NCBI RefSeq assembly: GCF_028713855.1
Contig: NZ_JAQTNN010000016.1
Location: forward strand, 215-64,214
Origin: Sulfuricurvum sp.
GTDB lineage: Bacteria > Campylobacterota > Campylobacteria > Campylobacterales > Sulfurimonadaceae
Reading direction: 5' to 3'
DNA length: 64,000 nucleotides
Shown: positions 32,307 to 48,055 of the stretch, in pieces
Numbering within the stretch: position 1 is the stretch's first letter
How the letters are laid out: each line of letters starts with the position of its first letter
Notes under the pieces: model-generated
The model's database searches: none
The model's input: only the letters and a program-made list of their open reading frames with translations
What the model was told of the DNA's origin: nothing
Program-made: the position numbers and the translations under genes

Positions 32307-34445
32307 CTAAATACTCATGCTGAATGTGATCGAAATCATTTGTGTATCTTGTGGGGATTTATACTTTGCACTACTATTATAGCGTACACCGTAATAATGC
32401 TCGTCAAAGAGGTTATCCACCCTCAAAGCAATTTTTTTATTCTGATCAAACGCGTAGCTGGCAAAAAGGTTAGTAACAAAATGTCCCTCAACCGTTGCGA
32501 ATTGGCCGTTATCATACGGCGCCGCCGCAATCGGGCTTACCCAGATGCATGAAGGGGAGAACCGCCAGTTTTGATACCGTAGTGTTGCACCCGATTTGAG
32601 CACATGCTTGGATTGGTAGGGGAGCTCATAATTATAGGTATCCTCTATTTTTCCATCGATATAACTGTAATTTGCCCAATAGCTCACATCATACCCCGGA
32701 AAATACGAATGCCCCTGATATGAAGCATCTCCGCCATAGACGGTTGCTGAAACCGAATTTGCCGCTCCGACCGCATGAATAATCGTCGTATCAGGGATAA
32801 AATAAATTTTATCCGGTAAATCCTCTTCATTTGAAATAATGTCTTTAACGGTTGCATAGTAGATTGAAAAGCTGAGTTGATCGTTCTGACTCAACAAAAT
32901 GTCTAAATCATACTCGTAGTTTTTGCTTTTTTCGGGCTTCAGATCGGGATTTGCCACCCTGAAACGATCCGTTTGATAAGTATTACCATCCCCCAGGGTA
33001 TTCGGTTGCAACGCATTACCGTAAATCTTGTATTTTTGATAATTCGAAGGGGCCAGATACGCTTGTGCATAGATAAGTTTTTGGGTCACATTATCGGTGG
33101 AGTAAAGCAGAGCAAAACGGGGGTTAAACGTCGAACCGTACGAAGAGCTATGATCGTAACGCCCCGCGAGAGAGAATTGTAAATCATCATCCAATCGTAT
33201 CTGATCTTGGAGATAGATCGCCTGATTATTCCACTGGATATGATAAATCGGCGCTTCGATATTTGATCCGGCGAAATAAATAGGGCCAGTGACAGAGGGA
33301 GCAGCTAAATCAACCGTCATCGGAGTAGATTTAAATGATTCGTACGACATTCCGAAAATAAGGTTATGCTTCTCGAAATTTTTATTCAACGTCTCCTCCG
33401 CCGCGTACCTTTGGGAATAGGAGTATTTGTATCCCGGAACATACGACGTGTATTTATTGATAAAATAACTATCTTTCAGCAACTCTGTGGAATCATAGCT
33501 CAGCGTGGTCGTTGATTGCACATCATCCAAAATTTTACCGCTGTATCGTCCGAAATAACCGAATAATTCCGTATTTAAATTGGAGTTATTGTCGTAAAGG
33601 TTACTCTTCGAGTTCCCTCCGTTCATAGCAATCAAGGTCGATTCAGACGAATAGCGGTAGTTTATCCCCATGTCAAACCCTCCGTTTTCATACCGTGCAC
33701 CAACCGATTTGGTGATAGTGGGCTGAAAATCGAACTCTCTATCCTGTGCGCTTTGGATAACACTCGATCCGAGAGTGACATCTTGTCTTAAAAAATCATT
33801 AGGGTACTCTTTTTCAAAATCATAATCTTGATCATGATGATAATGGGCTTTCAGCGTTAACATCCCTTTGTACAATGGTAAAGATTTAACGCCGTACAGA
33901 TAGTTGTACCCTTTTTTACCCCCCGTGACGCTCAACTCATCTTTCGGCGCCTTTGAACTAATAAGATTGATTACCCCACTCATCGCATCCGCACCGTAAA
34001 CAACCGATGCTGGACCGTACAAAACTTCCACCCGTTCGATTCCAAACAGCGGATACTGCATCGAGTGGCTAAGAATTTCTCCGTCTGTCTGATCGATCTC
34101 TATTCCGTCTTGGAGCACTTTAAAATAGTTTGTCCCCATAACCCCACGAATGCCGATCTGATTCAAAATACCGCTATCGGCATAACGCATCACTTGAAAT
34201 CCGGGGAGATCACCTAAAAGCTCATCCAGGCCTCGATAACCGCGATCTTCGATTTGTTCTTTCGAAACAACAACCATTTTGGCAGGGGTAAAGTTCAAAC
34301 TTTGCACTGATTTGGAAGCCGAAGTCACTTTTAGCTGTTGCAAATCATACAAATCGAGTCCAAAAACATCATCCATCAAATCGATTTTATATTCATTGCC
34401 ACCCAGCAATGAAGCTGCAGCGATGAGAGACAAAAGAAGCTTCAT
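32307..34445 (-). CDS. TonB-dependent receptor
   Basis: LQQLKVTSASK N-terminal motif, IERVEVLYGPASVVYGADAMSGVINLIS, VDNLFDEHY. Confidence 0.93.
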   Translation of the reverse strand: MKLLLSLIAAASLLGGNEYKIDLMDDVFGLDLYDLQQLKVTSASKSVQSLNFTPAKMVVVSKEQIEDRGYRGLDELLGDLPGFQVMRYADSGILNQIGIRGVMGTNYFKVLQDGIEIDQTDGEILSHSMQYPLFGIERVEVLYGPASVVYGADAMSGVINLISSKAPKDELSVTGGKKGYNYLYGVKSLPLYKGMLTLKAHYHHDQDYDFEKEYPNDFLRQDVTLGSSVIQSAQDREFDFQPTITKSVGARYENGGFDMGINYRYSSESTLIAMNGGNSKSNLYDNNSNLNTELFGYFGRYSGKILDDVQSTTTLSYDSTELLKDSYFINKYTSYVPGYKYSYSQRYAAEETLNKNFEKHNLIFGMSYESFKSTPMTVDLAAPSVTGPIYFAGSNIEAPIYHIQWNNQAIYLQDQIRLDDDLQFSLAGRYDHSSSYGSTFNPRFALLYSTDNVTQKLIYAQAYLAPSNYQKYKIYGNALQPNTLGDGNTYQTDRFRVANPDLKPEKSKNYEYDLDILLSQNDQLSFSIYYATVKDIISNEEDLPDKIYFIPDTTIIHAVGAANSVSATVYGGDASYQGHSYFPGYDVSYWANYSYIDGKIEDTYNYELPYQSKHVLKSGATLRYQNWRFSPSCIWVSPIAAAPYDNGQFATVEGHFVTNLFASYAFDQNKKIALRVDNLFDEHYYGVRYNSSAKYKSPQDTQMISITFSMSI

Positions 34446-34619
34446 TAATGCACCATTCTCCTATAATTTCTAGTAGAGTATCTAGTATTAAGGATACTAT
34501 TTTATTCCTTAAAGACATTTATCAACAGGATGGCTAAAACAGTGTTGTTTAACATCTATAAGCATGTAACTTATGCCGTATAAAAAAATAAATAATTCTT
34601 ATTTGTTTACCAATTTGAT

Positions 34620-34790
34620 TCATACTTCTTTTACCCAATGATCATAGCCGATCAAAAGGGCTTGATTCTCAAACTCCTTAAGCTTGGCTCTTTCCTTCTC
34701 GTCAATCGAAAGAGCATTTTCATCCCGAATTTCTCATATTTGAAACCATTAAAAAGCACAATGTTACGGTAAAGAATAAAGCAATATTTT
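34620..34790 (-). pseudogene. Possible frameshifted gene remnant just 3' of tRNA-Ser
   Basis: Start-less open frame 34733-34620 (EIRDENALSIDEKERAKLKEFENQALLIGYDHWVKEV*) joins YCFILYRNIVLFNGFKYE after a 1-nt shift. Confidence 0.3.
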
Positions 34791-34850
34791 ATTTTATTGA
34801 AAAGAAAGTACTGAGTAGGTTAAATGTCATAGTTAAGGGGGTTGGATAGA

Positions 34851-34938
34851 TGGCGGACAGCTAGGGGTTCGAACCCTAGATAGGTTGCCCTATACACGCG
34901 TTCCAGGCGTGCGCCTTCGACCACTCGGCCAGCTGTCC
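34851..34938 (-). tRNA. tRNA-Ser(GGA)
   Basis: GGACAGC/GCTGTCC acceptor stem, CACGC-CTGGAAC-GCGTG anticodon arm, long variable arm, GTTCGAACC T-loop, encoded CCA. Confidence 0.97.
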
Positions 34939-42955: not shown

Positions 42956-44290
42956 ATGACACAAGGGTACTATACGGCAATATCGGGTATACAAGCCAAC
43001 CAATACGGCATGGATGTTATTTCGGATAATTTAGCCAACGTATCGACAACGGCTTATAAAAGCTCAACAGCAGAGTTTGCCGATCTTTTTAGCAAAGCCA
43101 TCTCAAGCAGCAATACTCCAACGTCCAACGATATCGGCTATGGGGTAAAACTACAAGCCACAAGCTTTCAATTTACCCAAGGGACATTTATGCCCTCCGA
43201 TCGATTTAGCGATCTCGCACTCGAGGGGAACGGATGGTTTGGTGTCACTTCCAATGGAGAGAGTTCGTATACCCGAGACGGAAGTTTTTCGTTTGATACC
43301 TATCAAAAAACAAGCGGTGACGTCAACTCATCTACTAACCGGTTAGTGACGGCAGACGGACAATTCGTTACGGGTACGATGCTCAGTAATTTTGCCTACA
43401 ACCCATCATTTGATTACGGTGATCAAACGCTCAATGGAGCCGTCGGGGCTTATGTACTCAATAATCCGGCAAGTGATGTTGCCCTCTCCGACGTCGGCAG
43501 CCAAGGTGTGCTTGAGTTTCCAACACGCCTTGCTTATCCGGTTGTACCGACGACCCAAACGACTTTTGTCGGAAATCTGGGGGTTGTCGATGAAACACGC
43601 ACCATCAGTGCTAAAGTTATAAGCGCCAACAATGATGCCAATCAGCTCAAGCTGACTTTTACTAAAAGCGCGACTCAACCGACAAGCGGAATTGCTTGGG
43701 ATGTCGTCGCCACCGTGACGTCTAATGATGGCAGTATCGTATACGACACTCAAAATGGCCAAGCTACCTTCGGTGCATCCGGCGCTCTTGAAAATTTTAA
43801 TATCTCTTCCATGAACAACGACGGAACACCGGTTGCTGTAAATTTGGGGGCAGGATACAGCGGTGTAATCGCTATCGATGGAGTCGGGATTAGCGGATCA
43901 TCAACCTCCGATGGGGTCTCCGAAGGATCACTGACCAAATACGGTATCAATTCCAATGGGGTCATCATAGCCGATTTTTCCAACGGTCGCCAAAGTGCTA
44001 TCGGCCGTGTCGCGGTATACCATTTTCAAAATGATCAAGGTCTAAACCGCGAGGGGGGAACCTATTACACACAAAGTTCCGACAGTGGAAAACCTATTTT
44101 TTGGAGCGATGCCAATGGTAATACCATTACCGGAGCAACTGTCCGAAGTAATTATCTAGAGGGTTCTAACGCCGATGTATCGGTTGGACTAACCGATATG
44201 ATCGTCACACAGCGTGCCTATCAGGCCAATTCCAAAATAGTAACTACCGTGGATGAGATGATTCAAAAAGCTCTCTCAATGCATCGATAG
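42956..44290 (+). CDS. flgE: Flagellar hook/basal-body protein (short FlgE paralogue)
   Basis: ISDNLANVST, DLALEGNGWF, LEGSNADVSVGLTDMIVTQRAYQANSK. Confidence 0.8.
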   Translation: MTQGYYTAISGIQANQYGMDVISDNLANVSTTAYKSSTAEFADLFSKAISSSNTPTSNDIGYGVKLQATSFQFTQGTFMPSDRFSDLALEGNGWFGVTSNGESSYTRDGSFSFDTYQKTSGDVNSSTNRLVTADGQFVTGTMLSNFAYNPSFDYGDQTLNGAVGAYVLNNPASDVALSDVGSQGVLEFPTRLAYPVVPTTQTTFVGNLGVVDETRTISAKVISANNDANQLKLTFTKSATQPTSGIAWDVVATVTSNDGSIVYDTQNGQATFGASGALENFNISSMNNDGTPVAVNLGAGYSGVIAIDGVGISGSSTSDGVSEGSLTKYGINSNGVIIADFSNGRQSAIGRVAVYHFQNDQGLNREGGTYYTQSSDSGKPIFWSDANGNTITGATVRSNYLEGSNADVSVGLTDMIVTQRAYQANSKIVTTVDEMIQKALSMHR

Positions 44291-44294
44291 TTTT

Positions 44295-44311
44295 TGGAAT
44301 ATTTTTTGCTT
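44295..44311 (+). promoter_or_regulatory. Sigma54 promoter of the long flgE
   Basis: TGGAATATTTTTTGCTT, identical to 40662-40678. Confidence 0.8.
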
Positions 44312-44344
44312 ATAACTTTTACTTTGTCATAAAAAGGACAGCTC

Positions 44345-46234
44345 ATGTTGAAATCACTTTTTTCAGGCGTTACCGGATTGCAATCGCATCAAATCGCTAT
44401 GGACGTCGAATCCAACAACATTGCCAACGTTAATACGATCGGCTTTAAATACTCTCGTGCCAATTTTTCGGATTTGCTGGCACAGACCAATCAAATCGCA
44501 ACAGCTCCCCAAGGCTCACTGGGCGGTAAGAATGCGGTACAAATCGGATTAGGGACATCGGTAAATTCGATCACCCGTATCCATTCACAAGGTTCTATCC
44601 AAAATACCGATAAAAATACCGACGTCGCAATCCAAGGAGACGGATATTTTATTGTCTCTCCGGATGGGGGAAGTACCTATAAATACAGCCGATCCGGTGA
44701 CTTTAAATTTGATGCAGCCGGAAATTTTGTTGACAACAACGGATTTATCGTTCAAGGATGGGTACGTGACAAAGTAACCGGGCTTGTGGATTCTACCGCA
44801 CCTATCAGCAACATCACAATCCCTCCAGGACTCACCACTCCGGCAAATGCCAGTTCCGAAGTCGTTGTCAAAGCCAATTTGAGTGCAAGCACCACCATCA
44901 CTCAGTACAAACCGACTTATGAAACCGACACCGCAGGGGCATTTGTAAATACAAATGGATATCCTGTGGCTGCCGAAGACATGGGAGTCATGTTCAATGC
45001 CAGCGGTACCGCGTTTGCCCTCACTTCTGCCGCAGCCGGTCCTGGTGTAGGCGGAGACGGTATTTTCATCAGTACCGACGGCGGCGTGAACTACGCTGAA
45101 TTTCGTTATACCTCCAACAGTGCCGACGTTACCACTACCGGTACCGGTGCGGGCGGGGCGGCAACCTCTCCGCTTCAAAGTGACGGCTTCACACCATCCA
45201 ACAACAGAAACGTCTACTATTTCAACACGACCGAAGACCTTCGTGCCGCTGTTGCCAACTGGACATCAACCAATGCTCTTAATCCTGGGCGTTCTGCCGG
45301 TTCGACCGTAAACTACAATCCACAAGGAAAACTGCTTATTTCTAACAGTGCGGGGGCGAGTGACCTGAGTATCAACGTAGCCGGAATCACTGATGTCAAT
45401 ACCGTTAAAAACGAAACCTTTACCTCCAACTTTTTGACCCTTGCCGGTAATATAACGGCAGGTTCCGCTACGGCAAAACAATCACAAGCCGTCAATGCGG
45501 CTACCCACTCTGCAAGTATCGACGTGTATGATTCACTGGGAAGTAAACATACCCTTAAAGTCGATTTTAGAAAAGCAACCAGTAATTCGACCAGCGGAAC
45601 AACATGGAATTACACCGTTACTGTCCCGAAACCTGCGGATATCGGAGGGGTAGCCCCCTACCAAAACATCCTCAATCCGGCAGGGGCAATTACGTTTGAC
45701 TCTACCGGGGCATTGGCAGGGTACAACATTCCGGCAATCGACTTTACCGGAAACAACGGTTCCAAGCCAAACCAATCTATCAATCTGAATTTCGGTACGA
45801 TCAACGGATTTGACGGTATTACCAGTTTTGACAATCCATCTGCCACCAGTGGAATCAGTCAAGACGGTTATCCGGGCGGTGACCTAGAGGGTATTCGTAT
45901 CGATGCGAGCGGTACACTGATCGGTTCATTCTCAAACGGCCGTTCTTTCGGTCTTGCTCAAATCTCAATGGCAAAATTCTCGAACAATGAGGGTCTTACC
46001 AGCGACGGCGGAAACGTTTATCTCCAATCGGCAAACTCGGGTGATCCGATTATCGGTACAGCCGCTACTGCAGGACGTGGATATATGCAAGCATCCGCTC
46101 TTGAAGGCTCTAACGTCGATTTGTCCAAATCATTGACAAACCTTATCATTATTCAACGCGGCTATCAAGCCAATGCTAAAACCATTACCACTTCGGATAC
46201 CCTCCTCGAAACTCTTCTGGGCATCAAACGTTAA
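44345..46234 (+). CDS. flgE: Flagellar hook protein FlgE (long)
   Basis: SNNIANVNTIGFK, DVAIQGDGYF, LEGSNVDLSKSLTNLIIIQRGYQANAK, 629 aa. Confidence 0.93.
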   Translation: MLKSLFSGVTGLQSHQIAMDVESNNIANVNTIGFKYSRANFSDLLAQTNQIATAPQGSLGGKNAVQIGLGTSVNSITRIHSQGSIQNTDKNTDVAIQGDGYFIVSPDGGSTYKYSRSGDFKFDAAGNFVDNNGFIVQGWVRDKVTGLVDSTAPISNITIPPGLTTPANASSEVVVKANLSASTTITQYKPTYETDTAGAFVNTNGYPVAAEDMGVMFNASGTAFALTSAAAGPGVGGDGIFISTDGGVNYAEFRYTSNSADVTTTGTGAGGAATSPLQSDGFTPSNNRNVYYFNTTEDLRAAVANWTSTNALNPGRSAGSTVNYNPQGKLLISNSAGASDLSINVAGITDVNTVKNETFTSNFLTLAGNITAGSATAKQSQAVNAATHSASIDVYDSLGSKHTLKVDFRKATSNSTSGTTWNYTVTVPKPADIGGVAPYQNILNPAGAITFDSTGALAGYNIPAIDFTGNNGSKPNQSINLNFGTINGFDGITSFDNPSATSGISQDGYPGGDLEGIRIDASGTLIGSFSNGRSFGLAQISMAKFSNNEGLTSDGGNVYLQSANSGDPIIGTAATAGRGYMQASALEGSNVDLSKSLTNLIIIQRGYQANAKTITTSDTLLETLLGIKR

Positions 46235-46256
46235 CGCTAATGCGTTAGCGGCTTTG

Positions 46257-46433
46257 TTATAACTTTGTTTGTTTAATATTTAATAGGAAGAAGTAGATAG
46301 ACCCGGCAGTGAAGAAGCTGCCGGACTTTGAAACTTAAGGAGTGAGTGATGAAAACACCCTTGACTTGCTGCTGTCAATTGGGATTTAAGTATTATGAAA
46401 CAAATTAGTAAACAAACAGTAATAAGGTTATAA
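46257..46433. ncRNA. Candidate structured RNA or sORF-bearing element downstream of flgE
   Basis: Nested terminal inverted repeats (7 bp and 10 bp), hairpin ccggcag/ctgccgg 46303-46324, extended -10 at 46255-46263. Confidence 0.4.
46349..46408 (+). CDS. Candidate 19-aa peptide MKTPLTCCCQLGFKYYETN
   Basis: AAGGAG 6 nt before ATG; below the ORF-track cutoff. Confidence 0.35.
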   Translation: MKTPLTCCCQLGFKYYETN

Positions 46434-46440
46434 TTTCGTT

Positions 46441-46953
46441 ATGAGATGGCGAACCCTAAAAAAACAAAAACAGCACCAACCACCAACCCCTAAATCCAAA
46501 AAAATAATCTATGCCCCCTTTTGGCCTCGTGTCGCAGGATTTGCTACCGATATTTTTATGATCGGTTTACCGATATCGCTTATAACTATGATGCTATTCG
46601 GATACGATCAGATGCACACGGCAACCGCCATAGATGTGATTGTTCACAGCGATAAAGCACAGTTAAATCCCCCTAATCCTATAGCCTCTATCACCCAAAT
46701 AACCCTTTTTCTTATCACCTATGTCTGGTTATGGCATCGAGACGGCCAAACGCCGGGGAAAAAACTTGCCCATATCCGAGTGATCGATGCAACGACGCTA
46801 GAGAATGCTCCGTATTGGAAACTCTCCCTACGTTTTGTCGGTTATTTTATCTCCTTGATTAGTGTAATCGGTTTCTTTATCGGTTTACTCCGCAAGGATA
46901 AGCGTTCACTCCATGATCTCCTCAGCGGTACGGCTGTAATCCGCGTCTCTTAA
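46441..46953 (+). CDS. RDD family membrane protein
   Basis: APFWPRVAGFATD, GQTPGKKLAHIRVI, RSLHDLLSGTAV. Confidence 0.92.
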   Translation: MRWRTLKKQKQHQPPTPKSKKIIYAPFWPRVAGFATDIFMIGLPISLITMMLFGYDQMHTATAIDVIVHSDKAQLNPPNPIASITQITLFLITYVWLWHRDGQTPGKKLAHIRVIDATTLENAPYWKLSLRFVGYFISLISVIGFFIGLLRKDKRSLHDLLSGTAVIRVS

Positions 46954-46954
46954 T

Positions 46955-48055
46955 ATGCCGGTTTTAATCGCCTCGTTCTATTTTTTCTATTTTGCTCTGA
47001 TCGGGGTACACGTTATTTTTGTCCCAAAAATTCTCGCGATGGTGGGGTATGACCCGCTTCATATCGGGATTATACTCGCCTCCGCGCCATTGGTTCGTTT
47101 TGCGATGCCGTTTCTCTTTTTACAAGGTTTTCGGCTGGGTCAACAAACTTTTTTTACCTCTTTGGCTTTAATGCTGCTTGGAGCAGCAGGTTTCTACCCT
47201 TCACTAACCCATTTTTATCCTTTGCTTGGGGCGAATATCCTTTTTGGAATCGGAATTTCCCTTATTCTCCCTTATATTGAAGTCATCGCACTGGAACATA
47301 TTGGAAAAGAGCGTTACGGGCGAATCCGCCTCTTTGGCTCATTCGGGTTCATCGCCGTTGCCTTGGTGCTGGTCAAATTTCTCACCACCCCCTATGTCGG
47401 GATCGATTTTTTAATCGCAATGGCATTACTCACACTGGCCTTCGGAGCACTGATCGGTATGAAACAATCACATACCCCCTCTTCAGAATGCTCATCACAA
47501 GATGAAGCATGCCGATTTTCGATTGTGAAATACATCCCTCTTTGGATCGGATTTTTCCTAATGCAGGTGAGTTTCGGCCCTTTTTATAACTTCTTTACCA
47601 TCTATGCCACCGATCACGGCGTATCGTTGGACACGACGGTGTGGCTGTGGAGTTTCGGCGTTATTGCAGAAATCGCAATGTTTTATTTTCAAGGGCCGCT
47701 CCTTCGCGGCAATTTAGGACGAATCCTTCAGCTTACGGCATTGGTTACCGCATTGCGCTGGCTTATCGTTGCCCTTTTCCCCGATTCTACATTTCTCTTA
47801 TTTGCTTCCCAGAGTCTTCATGCCTTTAGTTTTGCTCTGTTTCACTCTGCGGCGATTGGAATGCTTTTTCATCTCCATAAAGCGCGTCGCCTTGCGCAAC
47901 AGTTTTTCTTCGGTATTTCATACGGTTTGGGAGGGTTTATAGGGGCAGTCGGGGCAGGGGCGCTCTATCAGTACACCCCTTCGTTATTATTTGTAGGAGG
48001 GGCGATAGCCGCATTGGGTGCCACTATCGCCTTTAGTGTTAATAATCGATCATAA
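46955..48055 (+). CDS. MFS transporter (HcaT/maltose-permease-like)
   Basis: About 12 TMs, ERYGRIRLFGSFGF, GVIAEI, QSLHAFSFALFH. Confidence 0.88.
   Translation: MPVLIASFYFFYFALIGVHVIFVPKILAMVGYDPLHIGIILASAPLVRFAMPFLFLQGFRLGQQTFFTSLALMLLGAAGFYPSLTHFYPLLGANILFGIGISLILPYIEVIALEHIGKERYGRIRLFGSFGFIAVALVLVKFLTTPYVGIDFLIAMALLTLAFGALIGMKQSHTPSSECSSQDEACRFSIVKYIPLWIGFFLMQVSFGPFYNFFTIYATDHGVSLDTTVWLWSFGVIAEIAMFYFQGPLLRGNLGRILQLTALVTALRWLIVALFPDSTFLLFASQSLHAFSFALFHSAAIGMLFHLHKARRLAQQFFFGISYGLGGFIGAVGAGALYQYTPSLLFVGGAIAALGATIAFSVNNRS

Follow-up and report, generated by a model that had tools for sequence, protein, structure and literature searches.

The window that we analysed, 64,000 nucleotides (nt) from Sulfuricurvum sp. 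(contig NZ_JAQTNN010000016.1), contains a 206-nt spacer between flgE and a gene for an RDD-family membrane protein, and the whole feature studied here lies in this spacer. We read the minus strand from ~46385 to ~46290, with a probability of about 0.6, as the gene for a trans-acting anti-Shine-Dalgarno small RNA (sRNA) of ~95 nt, divergent from an RDD gene that would be leaderless; a paralogous sRNA gene at ~34633 to ~34727 on the plus strand belongs to the same reading. The parts of the candidate gene, and the open reading frame (ORF) that faces it, are the following.

46425-46392, minus strand: putative promoter block TTATTAC-TGTTT-GTTTAC-N10-CATAAT, with the -10 box at 46397-46392, GTTTAC at 46413-46408 and ATTAC at 46423-46419
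46385, minus strand: predicted transcription start, the A of AUCCC, placed from the promoter geometry
46383-46358, minus strand: 5′ hairpin (HB), CCC-AA-UUGAC, loop AGCAGCAA (46373-46366), GUCAA-GGG
46357-46325, minus strand: single-stranded linker UGUUUUCAUCACUCACUCCUUAAGUUUCAAAG, with the near-invariant core ACUCCUUAAG at 46343-46334
46324-46303, minus strand: 3′ hairpin (H1), CCGGCAG, loop CUUCUUCA, CUGCCGG, found in essentially every copy
46302-46285, minus strand: pyrimidine-rich putative 3′ tail GUCUAUCUACUUCUUCCU
46349-46408, plus strand: 19-codon ORF encoding MKTPLTCCCQLGFKYYETN, judged non-coding, with an unconserved frame

Conservation was assessed in 60 relatives and with three covariance models, R1 (a 110-nt core), R2 and R3 (both hairpins). 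In the search of the 60 relatives, conservation of the spacer was limited to ~46320-46440, with 75-94% identity in about 35 of 36 congeners. The structured element covers 46285-46425, and R1 matched it in 62 of 66 Sulfuricurvum genomes, the four genomes without a match being 71-95% complete; beyond the genus R1 gave weaker matches in four sister genera, and a second copy turned up in several genomes. A covariance search of relatives had been suggested in an initial annotation of this DNA, made from the letters alone, and it bore out a structured element that is conserved genus-wide. Across 401 genomes from 96 genera of the order, the covariance search returned nothing beyond the family except marginal matches in one further genus, and these retain the promoter-like block. 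An exact-pattern scan of the genomes of 185,579 species gave 50 loci, one of them in a metagenome-assembled genome (MAG) of S. kujiense. Precisely, 49 loci were labelled Sulfuricurvum, Sulfurimonadaceae, Campylobacterales, Helicobacteraceae or Epsilonproteobacteria, and the remaining locus (L153, JAGLZA010000024.1) came from a MAG with the label candidate division WOR-3, in which a Sulfuricurvum contig was probably mis-binned.

In the oriented alignments four conserved blocks follow one another: a stable hairpin with a species-specific sequence; CTTTGAAAC-TTAAGGAGT, a 5-11 nt spacer and then ATG(AATG)AAAA; CCC-TTGAC-TTGCTGCT-GTCAA-TT-GGGAT; and 6 variable bases followed by ATTATGAAaCAAaTTaGTAAACaAAcaGTAATAA. 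The element tolerates rearrangements, with a tandem TTCAAAG duplication in the linker of L007 and L055 and a ~25-nt insertion forming an extra small hairpin inside the 3′ hairpin loop of L022 and L063. Two contigs of one genome (G028), C51 (1-185) and C86 (27869-28009), both terminate inside the element, which suggests that the assembly broke there or that the two contig ends overlap.

For the structure, base pairs were counted in 77 copies aligned with R3. Over 15 pairs, 91.3% of the cells were paired, versus 67.8% in shuffles and 31-46% when the partners were slid. Double (compensatory) changes were seen in 14 of the 15 pairs, and the covariation score, 0.549 versus 0.162, was reached in none of 500 shuffles. 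In the 5′ hairpin, stem swaps keep the pairing (TTGAC/GTCAA, CGAC/GTCG, TTGATG/CATCAA, TTGG/CCAA, with TGATC/GATCA in place of TTGAC/GTCAA in the paralogue); another genus has the stem CTCTTC/GAAGAG and keeps the loop GCTGC (sense strand), the loop core GCAGC being near-constant. In fact, whole stems are replaced in the paralogue and in other genera, with loop and linker retained. In the 3′ hairpin all 7 pairs covary and 95% of the cells are paired, and at least 15 unrelated stem sequences are visible at this position in the raw sequences. This is the GC-rich hairpin of the initial annotation, CCGGCAG/CTGCCGG at 46303-46324, which sequence and repeat search confirmed, and it is probably a protective or terminator hairpin. 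Its loop is C/U-rich, the tail is 72% pyrimidine over the 77 copies, and loop and tail carry CUCCUU or CCUCCU in many relatives. With the proposed ends, the minus-strand RNA has a minimum free energy of -24.8 kcal/mol (z = -3.9), and none of 200 shuffles was as stable.

RNAalifold on a plain MAFFT alignment recovered the CCC/GGG pairs only, because the variable hairpin was misaligned, and covariance-model alignments were used instead. Two further stems were considered and set aside: an extended basal stem from the 6-nt spacer (GTTGA/TCAAC, L013), present in few relatives only and judged to be chance, and ATTAT/GTAAT (one apparent double change, L023), which is too weak and would lie inside the promoter under the favoured model.

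The linker is the most conserved stretch of the element. It reads CAU-N-ACUCCUUAAG and is complementary to a Shine-Dalgarno (SD) sequence (AAGGAG), the spacer, the AUG and the A-run; because it mirrors this SD-AUG region, the sense strand has the appearance of an ideal translation start, with no conserved ORF behind it.

The strand was assigned from the promoter-like block, from the wobble pairs and from the neighbourhoods of the copies. Sigma-70 promoters of Campylobacter and Helicobacter have gnTAnaAT 4-8 nt before the start, no -35 box and periodic T (PMC3847290), and the AT-rich block, read on the minus strand, fits this type. Its -10 hexamer, nAnAnT, is found in all 77 copies, paralogues and other genera included (CATAAT in at least 55, TATAAT in 9, TATACT in 3, GATAAT in 2, CATACT in paralogues; CACAAT and TAAAAT also occur), with a (G/A)TT(T/A)AC hexamer exactly 10 nt upstream. 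Downstream of it come 6 variable nt in 70 of the 77 copies (5 or 7 nt in the other 7) and then directly, in 77/77, an A at the foot of the 5′ hairpin. Where the sense-strand "ATG" of this block changes to ATA or ATC, the minus-strand -10 box is kept or improved, and the block accompanies paralogues that have no RDD gene nearby. A promoter/terminator scan of 45800-46900 called no sigma-70 promoter within the spacer, and a by-eye check found no sigma-54 or sigma-28 promoter motifs.

Wobble pairs in the 3′ hairpin amount to 20 G·U on the minus strand versus 1 A·C. A strand-neutral ungapped count favours the minus strand by 16 to 6, and the strand-neutral rows of the core stem hold about a dozen minus-strand cases from at least 8 independent changes and none for the plus strand. 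The 5′ hairpin favours the minus strand in L016/L062, L077 and L086.

In Sulfuricurvum the gene order is always flgE, element, RDD, MFS. In the genera g26 and g44 the order is element, RDD, MFS, with no flgE, and in g28 and g43 the element stands between a ksgA-like gene and a gene for 370-380 amino acids (named by N-terminal sequence only). Here both flanking genes are on the strand of the proposed RNA and the sense direction meets a convergent gene ~30 nt away, which excludes a sense-strand 5′ leader. Two properties of an sRNA gene, a promoter geometry of its own and an orientation untied to the flanking genes, are thus found, as far as can be judged from sequence. Taken together, the -10 geometry, the G·U asymmetry, the gene-independent orientation and the linker that mirrors an SD-AUG region point to the minus strand.

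The genes and signals on either side of the element are given below.

44345-46234, plus strand: flgE (Pfam domains FlgE_D2, Flg_bbr_C and Flg_bb_rod)
46229-46250, plus strand: hairpin at the flgE stop codon followed by GCTTTGTTAT, a candidate flgE terminator outside the element
46429-46434, plus strand: RDD -10 box TATAAT, 6 nt before the ATG (46441)
46441-46953, plus strand: RDD-family membrane-protein gene (Pfam RDD, E = 1.5e-20)
3′ of the RDD gene: MFS_1_like transporter gene (Pfam)

The hairpin at 46229-46250 was the sole terminator-like call of the scan. As for RDD, 49 of 50 relatives have a TAnnnT hexamer whose end stands 5-6 nt ahead of the RDD ATG, and an SD sequence is found in none; the arrangement (TATAAT or TACAAT) holds despite 20-130-nt insertions that separate it from the sRNA block. 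The RDD promoter agrees with the leaderless pattern gnTAnaAT-N5-9-ATG (PMC3847290), and the RDD mRNA is probably leaderless and divergent from the putative sRNA promoter. With a promoter of its own, RDD does not need the AT-rich block as a leader, a further point for the minus strand of the element. The initial annotation had imagined a minus-strand antisense RNA carrying CUCCUU, driven from a TATAAC near 46430. The idea of the RNA survives; the promoter does not, as the conserved -10 box is CATAAT at 46397-46392, and the TATAAC is the mirror of the RDD -10 box and is lost in relatives with insertions there. Rfam 15, searched on both strands of 44000-48000, gave chance-level matches only (E >= 0.77, far under the gathering scores) and none in the spacer.

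The paralogue, at 34593-34731 on the plus strand of the window, was found with the covariance models: R1 53.5 bits (34593-34694, a minus-strand match), R2 65.3 bits and R3 42.6 bits. It retains both hairpins, CTTAAGGAGT and the AT-rich block, and its "sense" strand has no ATG. The following parts were located in it.

34621-34626, plus strand: -10 box CATACT
~34633, plus strand: predicted start
34634-34660, plus strand: 5′ hairpin
34673-34682, plus strand: ACUCCUUAAG
34687-34715, plus strand: 3′ hairpin, with tail AUUUUCAUCC

It lies between a tRNA-Ser gene (34851-34938, minus strand) and a gene for a TonB-dependent receptor (32307-34445, minus strand), ~150 nt upstream of the latter and divergent from it; another TonB-type receptor mRNA, elsewhere in the genome, is among the best matches to the sRNA seed. 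At 34834-34938 ARAGORN called a minus-strand tRNA-Ser(GGA) that overlaps a plus-strand tRNA-Arg(TCG), the latter probably an artefact that mirrors the tRNA-Ser gene. The initial annotation had asked for a BLASTN search for extra copies. BLAST against the own genome found the spacer region to be single-copy, and the one additional copy was revealed by the covariance models.

In the mechanism that we propose, a sigma-70-type epsilonproteobacterial promoter (T-tracts or TTAC repeats, CATAAT, 6 nt, A) would drive the sRNA back-to-back with the RDD promoter. The transcript would open with the 5′-terminal hairpin and its conserved loop AGCAGCA, continue with the unpaired linker UUUUCAU-CACUC-ACUCCUUAAG-UUUCAAAG, which would mirror a complete initiation region (SD AAGGAG, 5-7 nt spacer, AUG, A-rich second codon), and close with the stable hairpin with C/U-rich loop and the pyrimidine-rich tail. 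In the likeliest mode of action, the one known from anti-SD sRNAs of the Hfq-less Campylobacterota such as CJnc230/FlmE, the linker, and perhaps also the C/U-rich loop and the tail, would pair with the SD and start-codon regions of mRNAs, whereby ribosome binding would be blocked and translation repressed.

As speculative leads only, the best target matches in the genome appear to be mRNAs of outer-membrane proteins. The string CTTAAGGAG occurs 11 times in the genome; two occurrences are the sRNA loci and six stand at SD spacing before long ORFs (97-763 amino acids). Four of these six ORFs are outer-membrane by sequence reading, with no family search: two look like porins, one like OmpA and one like a TonB-type receptor. 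Among the candidate targets, the TonB-type receptor gene is at 105819-108110 of genome contig C1 and a porin-like gene at 33943-35481 of contig C17. One porin-like translation initiation region has a match of 13 + 7 nt, at rank 17 of 1825 in a genome-wide duplex ranking that is noisy, and (C)TTAAGGAGT is retained in about 8 of 12 readable orthologues.

A number of results weigh against the sRNA gene as we describe it. The alignment in which pairs were counted was fitted to the model and favours structure. The 3′ hairpin does not look like a canonical intrinsic terminator: UUUU occurs within 14 nt in 17 of the 77 tails only, and terminator scans called none. Fold stability of the single sequence does not separate the strands (z = -3.9 for minus versus -3.4 for plus), and a two-strand comparison of fold energies, 20 to 9 and then 32 to 37 according to the window chosen, is not decisive. 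Wobbles of the 5′ hairpin are mixed, with U·G on the sense strand in the ATCTC/GGGAT clade, L010 and L023. Many copies have up to three AAGGA(G/U) motifs on the sense strand (5′ flank, hairpin loop, SD), as in a CsrA-binding RNA. With regard to targets, signal-peptide-like starts are not enriched in the top 25-200 predicted duplexes genome-wide; the mean shift of signal-peptide-like genes, -0.83 kcal/mol versus +0.59 (standard deviation 0.33) with shuffled linkers, is small, and co-variation of seed and targets in the genus g28 gave one extra site only and is uninformative.

These points lead to three rival explanations at the nucleic-acid level. A functional RNA on the plus strand, either derived from the flgE 3′ untranslated region or independent, with AAGGA(G/U) motifs that bind CsrA or ribosomes, or else an RDD-MFS 5′ leader, seems to us unlikely. 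For such an RNA one can cite that in one clade the hairpin loop AGAAGGAUGAA resembles the CsrA selection consensus, that SD and AUG are retained in 70 of 74 copies, that the 5′ hairpin of one clade has U·G on the plus strand, that element, RDD and MFS are linked in three genera, and that the hairpin stands 20-35 nt past the flgE stop codon in many species, C. jejuni CJnc230 being likewise cut from the flgE transcript (PMC11187230). However, the flgE-proximal hairpin has its G·U pairs on the other strand by 20 to 1, in g28, g43 and one paralogue the sense direction leads into a convergent gene, the -10 box of RDD itself stands 5-6 nt before its ATG, and paralogues are not adjacent to flgE. The AT-rich block would be a roleless unstructured 3′ part, yet it varies perfectly like a -10 box on the other strand. 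Compared with RNAs of the CsrB/RsmZ type, plus-strand GGA motifs are present in many copies and there is none in the loop of the window's own hairpin, while the wobbles favour the other strand. That both strands are transcribed as a sense/antisense pair like CJnc180/CJnc190, or that the minus RNA acts in cis on flgE read-through, is in our judgement quite unlikely. The mixed wobbles of the 5′ hairpin would agree with it, as would TGnTATAAC/T on the plus strand upstream of the hairpin in the window and its nearest relative, and flgE transcription would converge on the element; but outside the nearest relatives no plus-strand promoter is conserved, and the paralogues and the copies in other genera lack flgE. 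That only the DNA matters, as a regulatory region with palindromic binding sites and operators of the RDD-MFS promoter but with no stable RNA product, is very improbable. TTGAC-N8-GTCAA is operator-like, and relative to the RDD promoter the AT-rich block occupies -15 to -50, but the palindromes swap sequence and stay complementary, up to replacement of a full stem, unlike protein operators; moreover, the asymmetry of G·T versus A·C between strands has no explanation at the DNA level, and there are copies away from RDD.

The fourth rival is that the plus-strand micro-ORF is translated and functional, as a micropeptide, a type I toxin or a Cys-sensing leader, and we regard it as extremely improbable. 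Its favourable side is what the initial annotation had described: a strong SD, AAGGAG at 46337-46342, 6 nt before the ATG at 46349, and a 19-codon ORF, closed by TAG at 46408, with Cys-Cys-Cys. All of these are present, as the sequence confirms; SD and ATG are ideally spaced in most copies, and the window's copy has 3 Cys codons. Against it, peptide sequence, frame and length are all unconserved. Among 74 copies the Cys frame is open from the start codon in 19 only, the first-ATG peptides span 2-24 amino acids (7 or fewer in 26 copies), and 4 copies have no start codon; a single-base indel between the close relatives L018 and L019 shifts the frame, and TGCTGCTGT reads as Cys-Cys-Cys in a minority of copies only. 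Since frame, length and start are unconserved, the constraint is on the nucleic acid and not on a peptide, and the toxin, micropeptide and Cys-leader readings therefore fall. By comparison of the copies, then, the 19-codon ORF is most likely a by-product and not a gene. In particular, the toxin-antitoxin pair of the AapA/IsoA type that had been proposed finds no conserved small hydrophobic toxic peptide, and no hydrophobic toxin-like segment; a Cys-sensing leader peptide or attenuator finds no conserved Cys run and no Cys-related genes downstream (Pfam: RDD and MFS_1_like), with RDD under its own, probably leaderless, promoter. The AT-rich block contains another small ORF (MKQISKQTVI...), which was rejected as well: in L018, L019, L022 and L029 its third codon is a stop, and elsewhere ATA, ATC or GTG replaces the ATG. 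More generally, a strong SD, an ATG and a Cys3 ORF can merely mirror an antisense seed, which calls for caution in the annotation of micro-ORFs.

The nested inverted repeats that the initial annotation had taken as the bounds of an element are present as well, and they are not its boundaries, since the left arms are unconserved in relatives. The repeat search gave 46266-81/46403-18 (16 nt, 88%) and 46257-69/46421-33 (13 nt, 85%). When the 206-nt spacer was shuffled 1000 times with its dinucleotides kept, 1.3% of the shuffles equalled or exceeded the longest exact arm, of 10 nt (TGTTTGTTTA/TAAACAAACA), which is thus nominally unusual within the single sequence. The right arms fall inside the genus-wide conserved block 46392-46425; the left arms, 46255-46281, are unconserved T-rich DNA recognisable in the closest relatives only. 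A miniature inverted-repeat transposable element (MITE) or other insertion element was rejected, as there are 1-2 copies per genome instead of many dispersed ones, and no conserved terminal inverted repeats. The T-rich stretch TGTTATAAC-TTTGTTTGTTTAATATTTAAT (46255-46281, plus strand), 5′ of the hairpin, is similar to part of the sRNA promoter block in inverted orientation, and its counterpart in the nearest relative is TGTTATAAT. The extended -10-like string that had been noted is indeed there (TGTTATAAC, 46255-46263), and the stretch could be a lineage-specific plus-strand promoter. A palindrome like a repetitive extragenic palindrome or a MITE, GCCAAAGGRAT-N-ATYCCTTTGGC, recurs in spacers of the flgE/RDD area in L004, L009, L012, L018 and L025, and in L012 and L025 its insertion separates the RDD promoter from the sRNA promoter block.

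Returning to the minus-strand sRNA, a further and more tentative proposal, which we consider doubtful, is that it founds an sRNA family specific to Sulfuricurvum and related Sulfurimonadaceae, with a seed that is a full-length mirror of SD-spacer-AUG-AAA and could let one RNA damp the translation of an entire class of envelope proteins with strong translation (porin-like, OmpA-like, TonB-dependent receptors). If true, it would be an envelope-homeostasis riboregulator in a phylum without Hfq and sigma-E; to our knowledge, Campylobacterota have neither. In a bolder and speculative variant the complementary strand would also be expressed, by flgE read-through, and its GGA motifs would titrate CsrA, linking hook completion to the CsrA-FliW circuit.

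Among known systems, the nearest case is CJnc230/FlmE of C. jejuni. FlmE is an anti-SD sRNA encoded on the flgE strand just past flgE that blocks ribosome binding sites; it is RpoN-dependent, processed by RNase III and limited to few Campylobacter species (PMC11187230). The candidate shares with it the phylum, the post-flgE spacer, a length of ~90-100 nt and two stem-loops that flank a single-stranded anti-SD motif (CCUU in FlmE). Unlike FlmE, it would be on the strand opposite flgE, with a sigma-70-type promoter of its own; in other genera the element follows RDD and not flgE, and paralogues are found elsewhere. R2 returned nothing convincing for homology with FlmE across the 96 genera (401 genomes), which is not a direct sequence-to-sequence comparison. 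A member of the FlmE family would be on the flgE strand and processed from the flgE transcript, and here the strand indicators are opposite and some copies have no flgE. The label of a "flagellar" sRNA, also in the initial annotation, likewise does not suit an element that in other genera stands beside RDD-MFS or a ksgA-like gene with no flgE nearby.

Like RepG of H. pylori and similar C/U-rich sRNAs of Hfq-less bacteria (RoxS/RsaE type; compare PMC8295292), the candidate has unpaired C/U-rich stretches, including the loop of the 3′-proximal hairpin, that could pair with G-rich or SD sequences. It differs from them in its conserved seed, which is a whole SD-to-AUG mirror of ~25 nt and not a short C-rich motif. 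We know of no sequence relation between the element and these sRNAs. The role would be analogous to that of the enterobacterial MicA, RybB, MicF and OmrA/B, which repress outer-membrane proteins, if the porin-like, OmpA-like and TonB-type targets are real; unlike them the candidate is of unrelated sequence and belongs to a phylum without Hfq, and the link to targets consists of sequence matches that are statistically weak. With AapA/IsoA of H. pylori it shares a short ORF with a strong SD facing a possible antisense RNA, and it differs in that neither a conserved peptide nor a hydrophobic toxin is found and many copies lack the ORF or have it frame-shifted.

A literature search found no sRNA described in Sulfuricurvum, Sulfurimonas or free-living sulfur-oxidising Campylobacterota, and the known work on regulatory RNA in Campylobacterota concerns Campylobacter and Helicobacter. 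The element is best classed with the base-pairing anti-SD sRNAs, an established kind in which it makes a new family, and the proposed mechanism is not new in kind. As an sRNA candidate it has conservation and structure in its favour, together with a clear promoter, paralogues and an anti-SD/anti-AUG seed that is very long, and it offers a testable object in culturable relatives such as S. kujiense.

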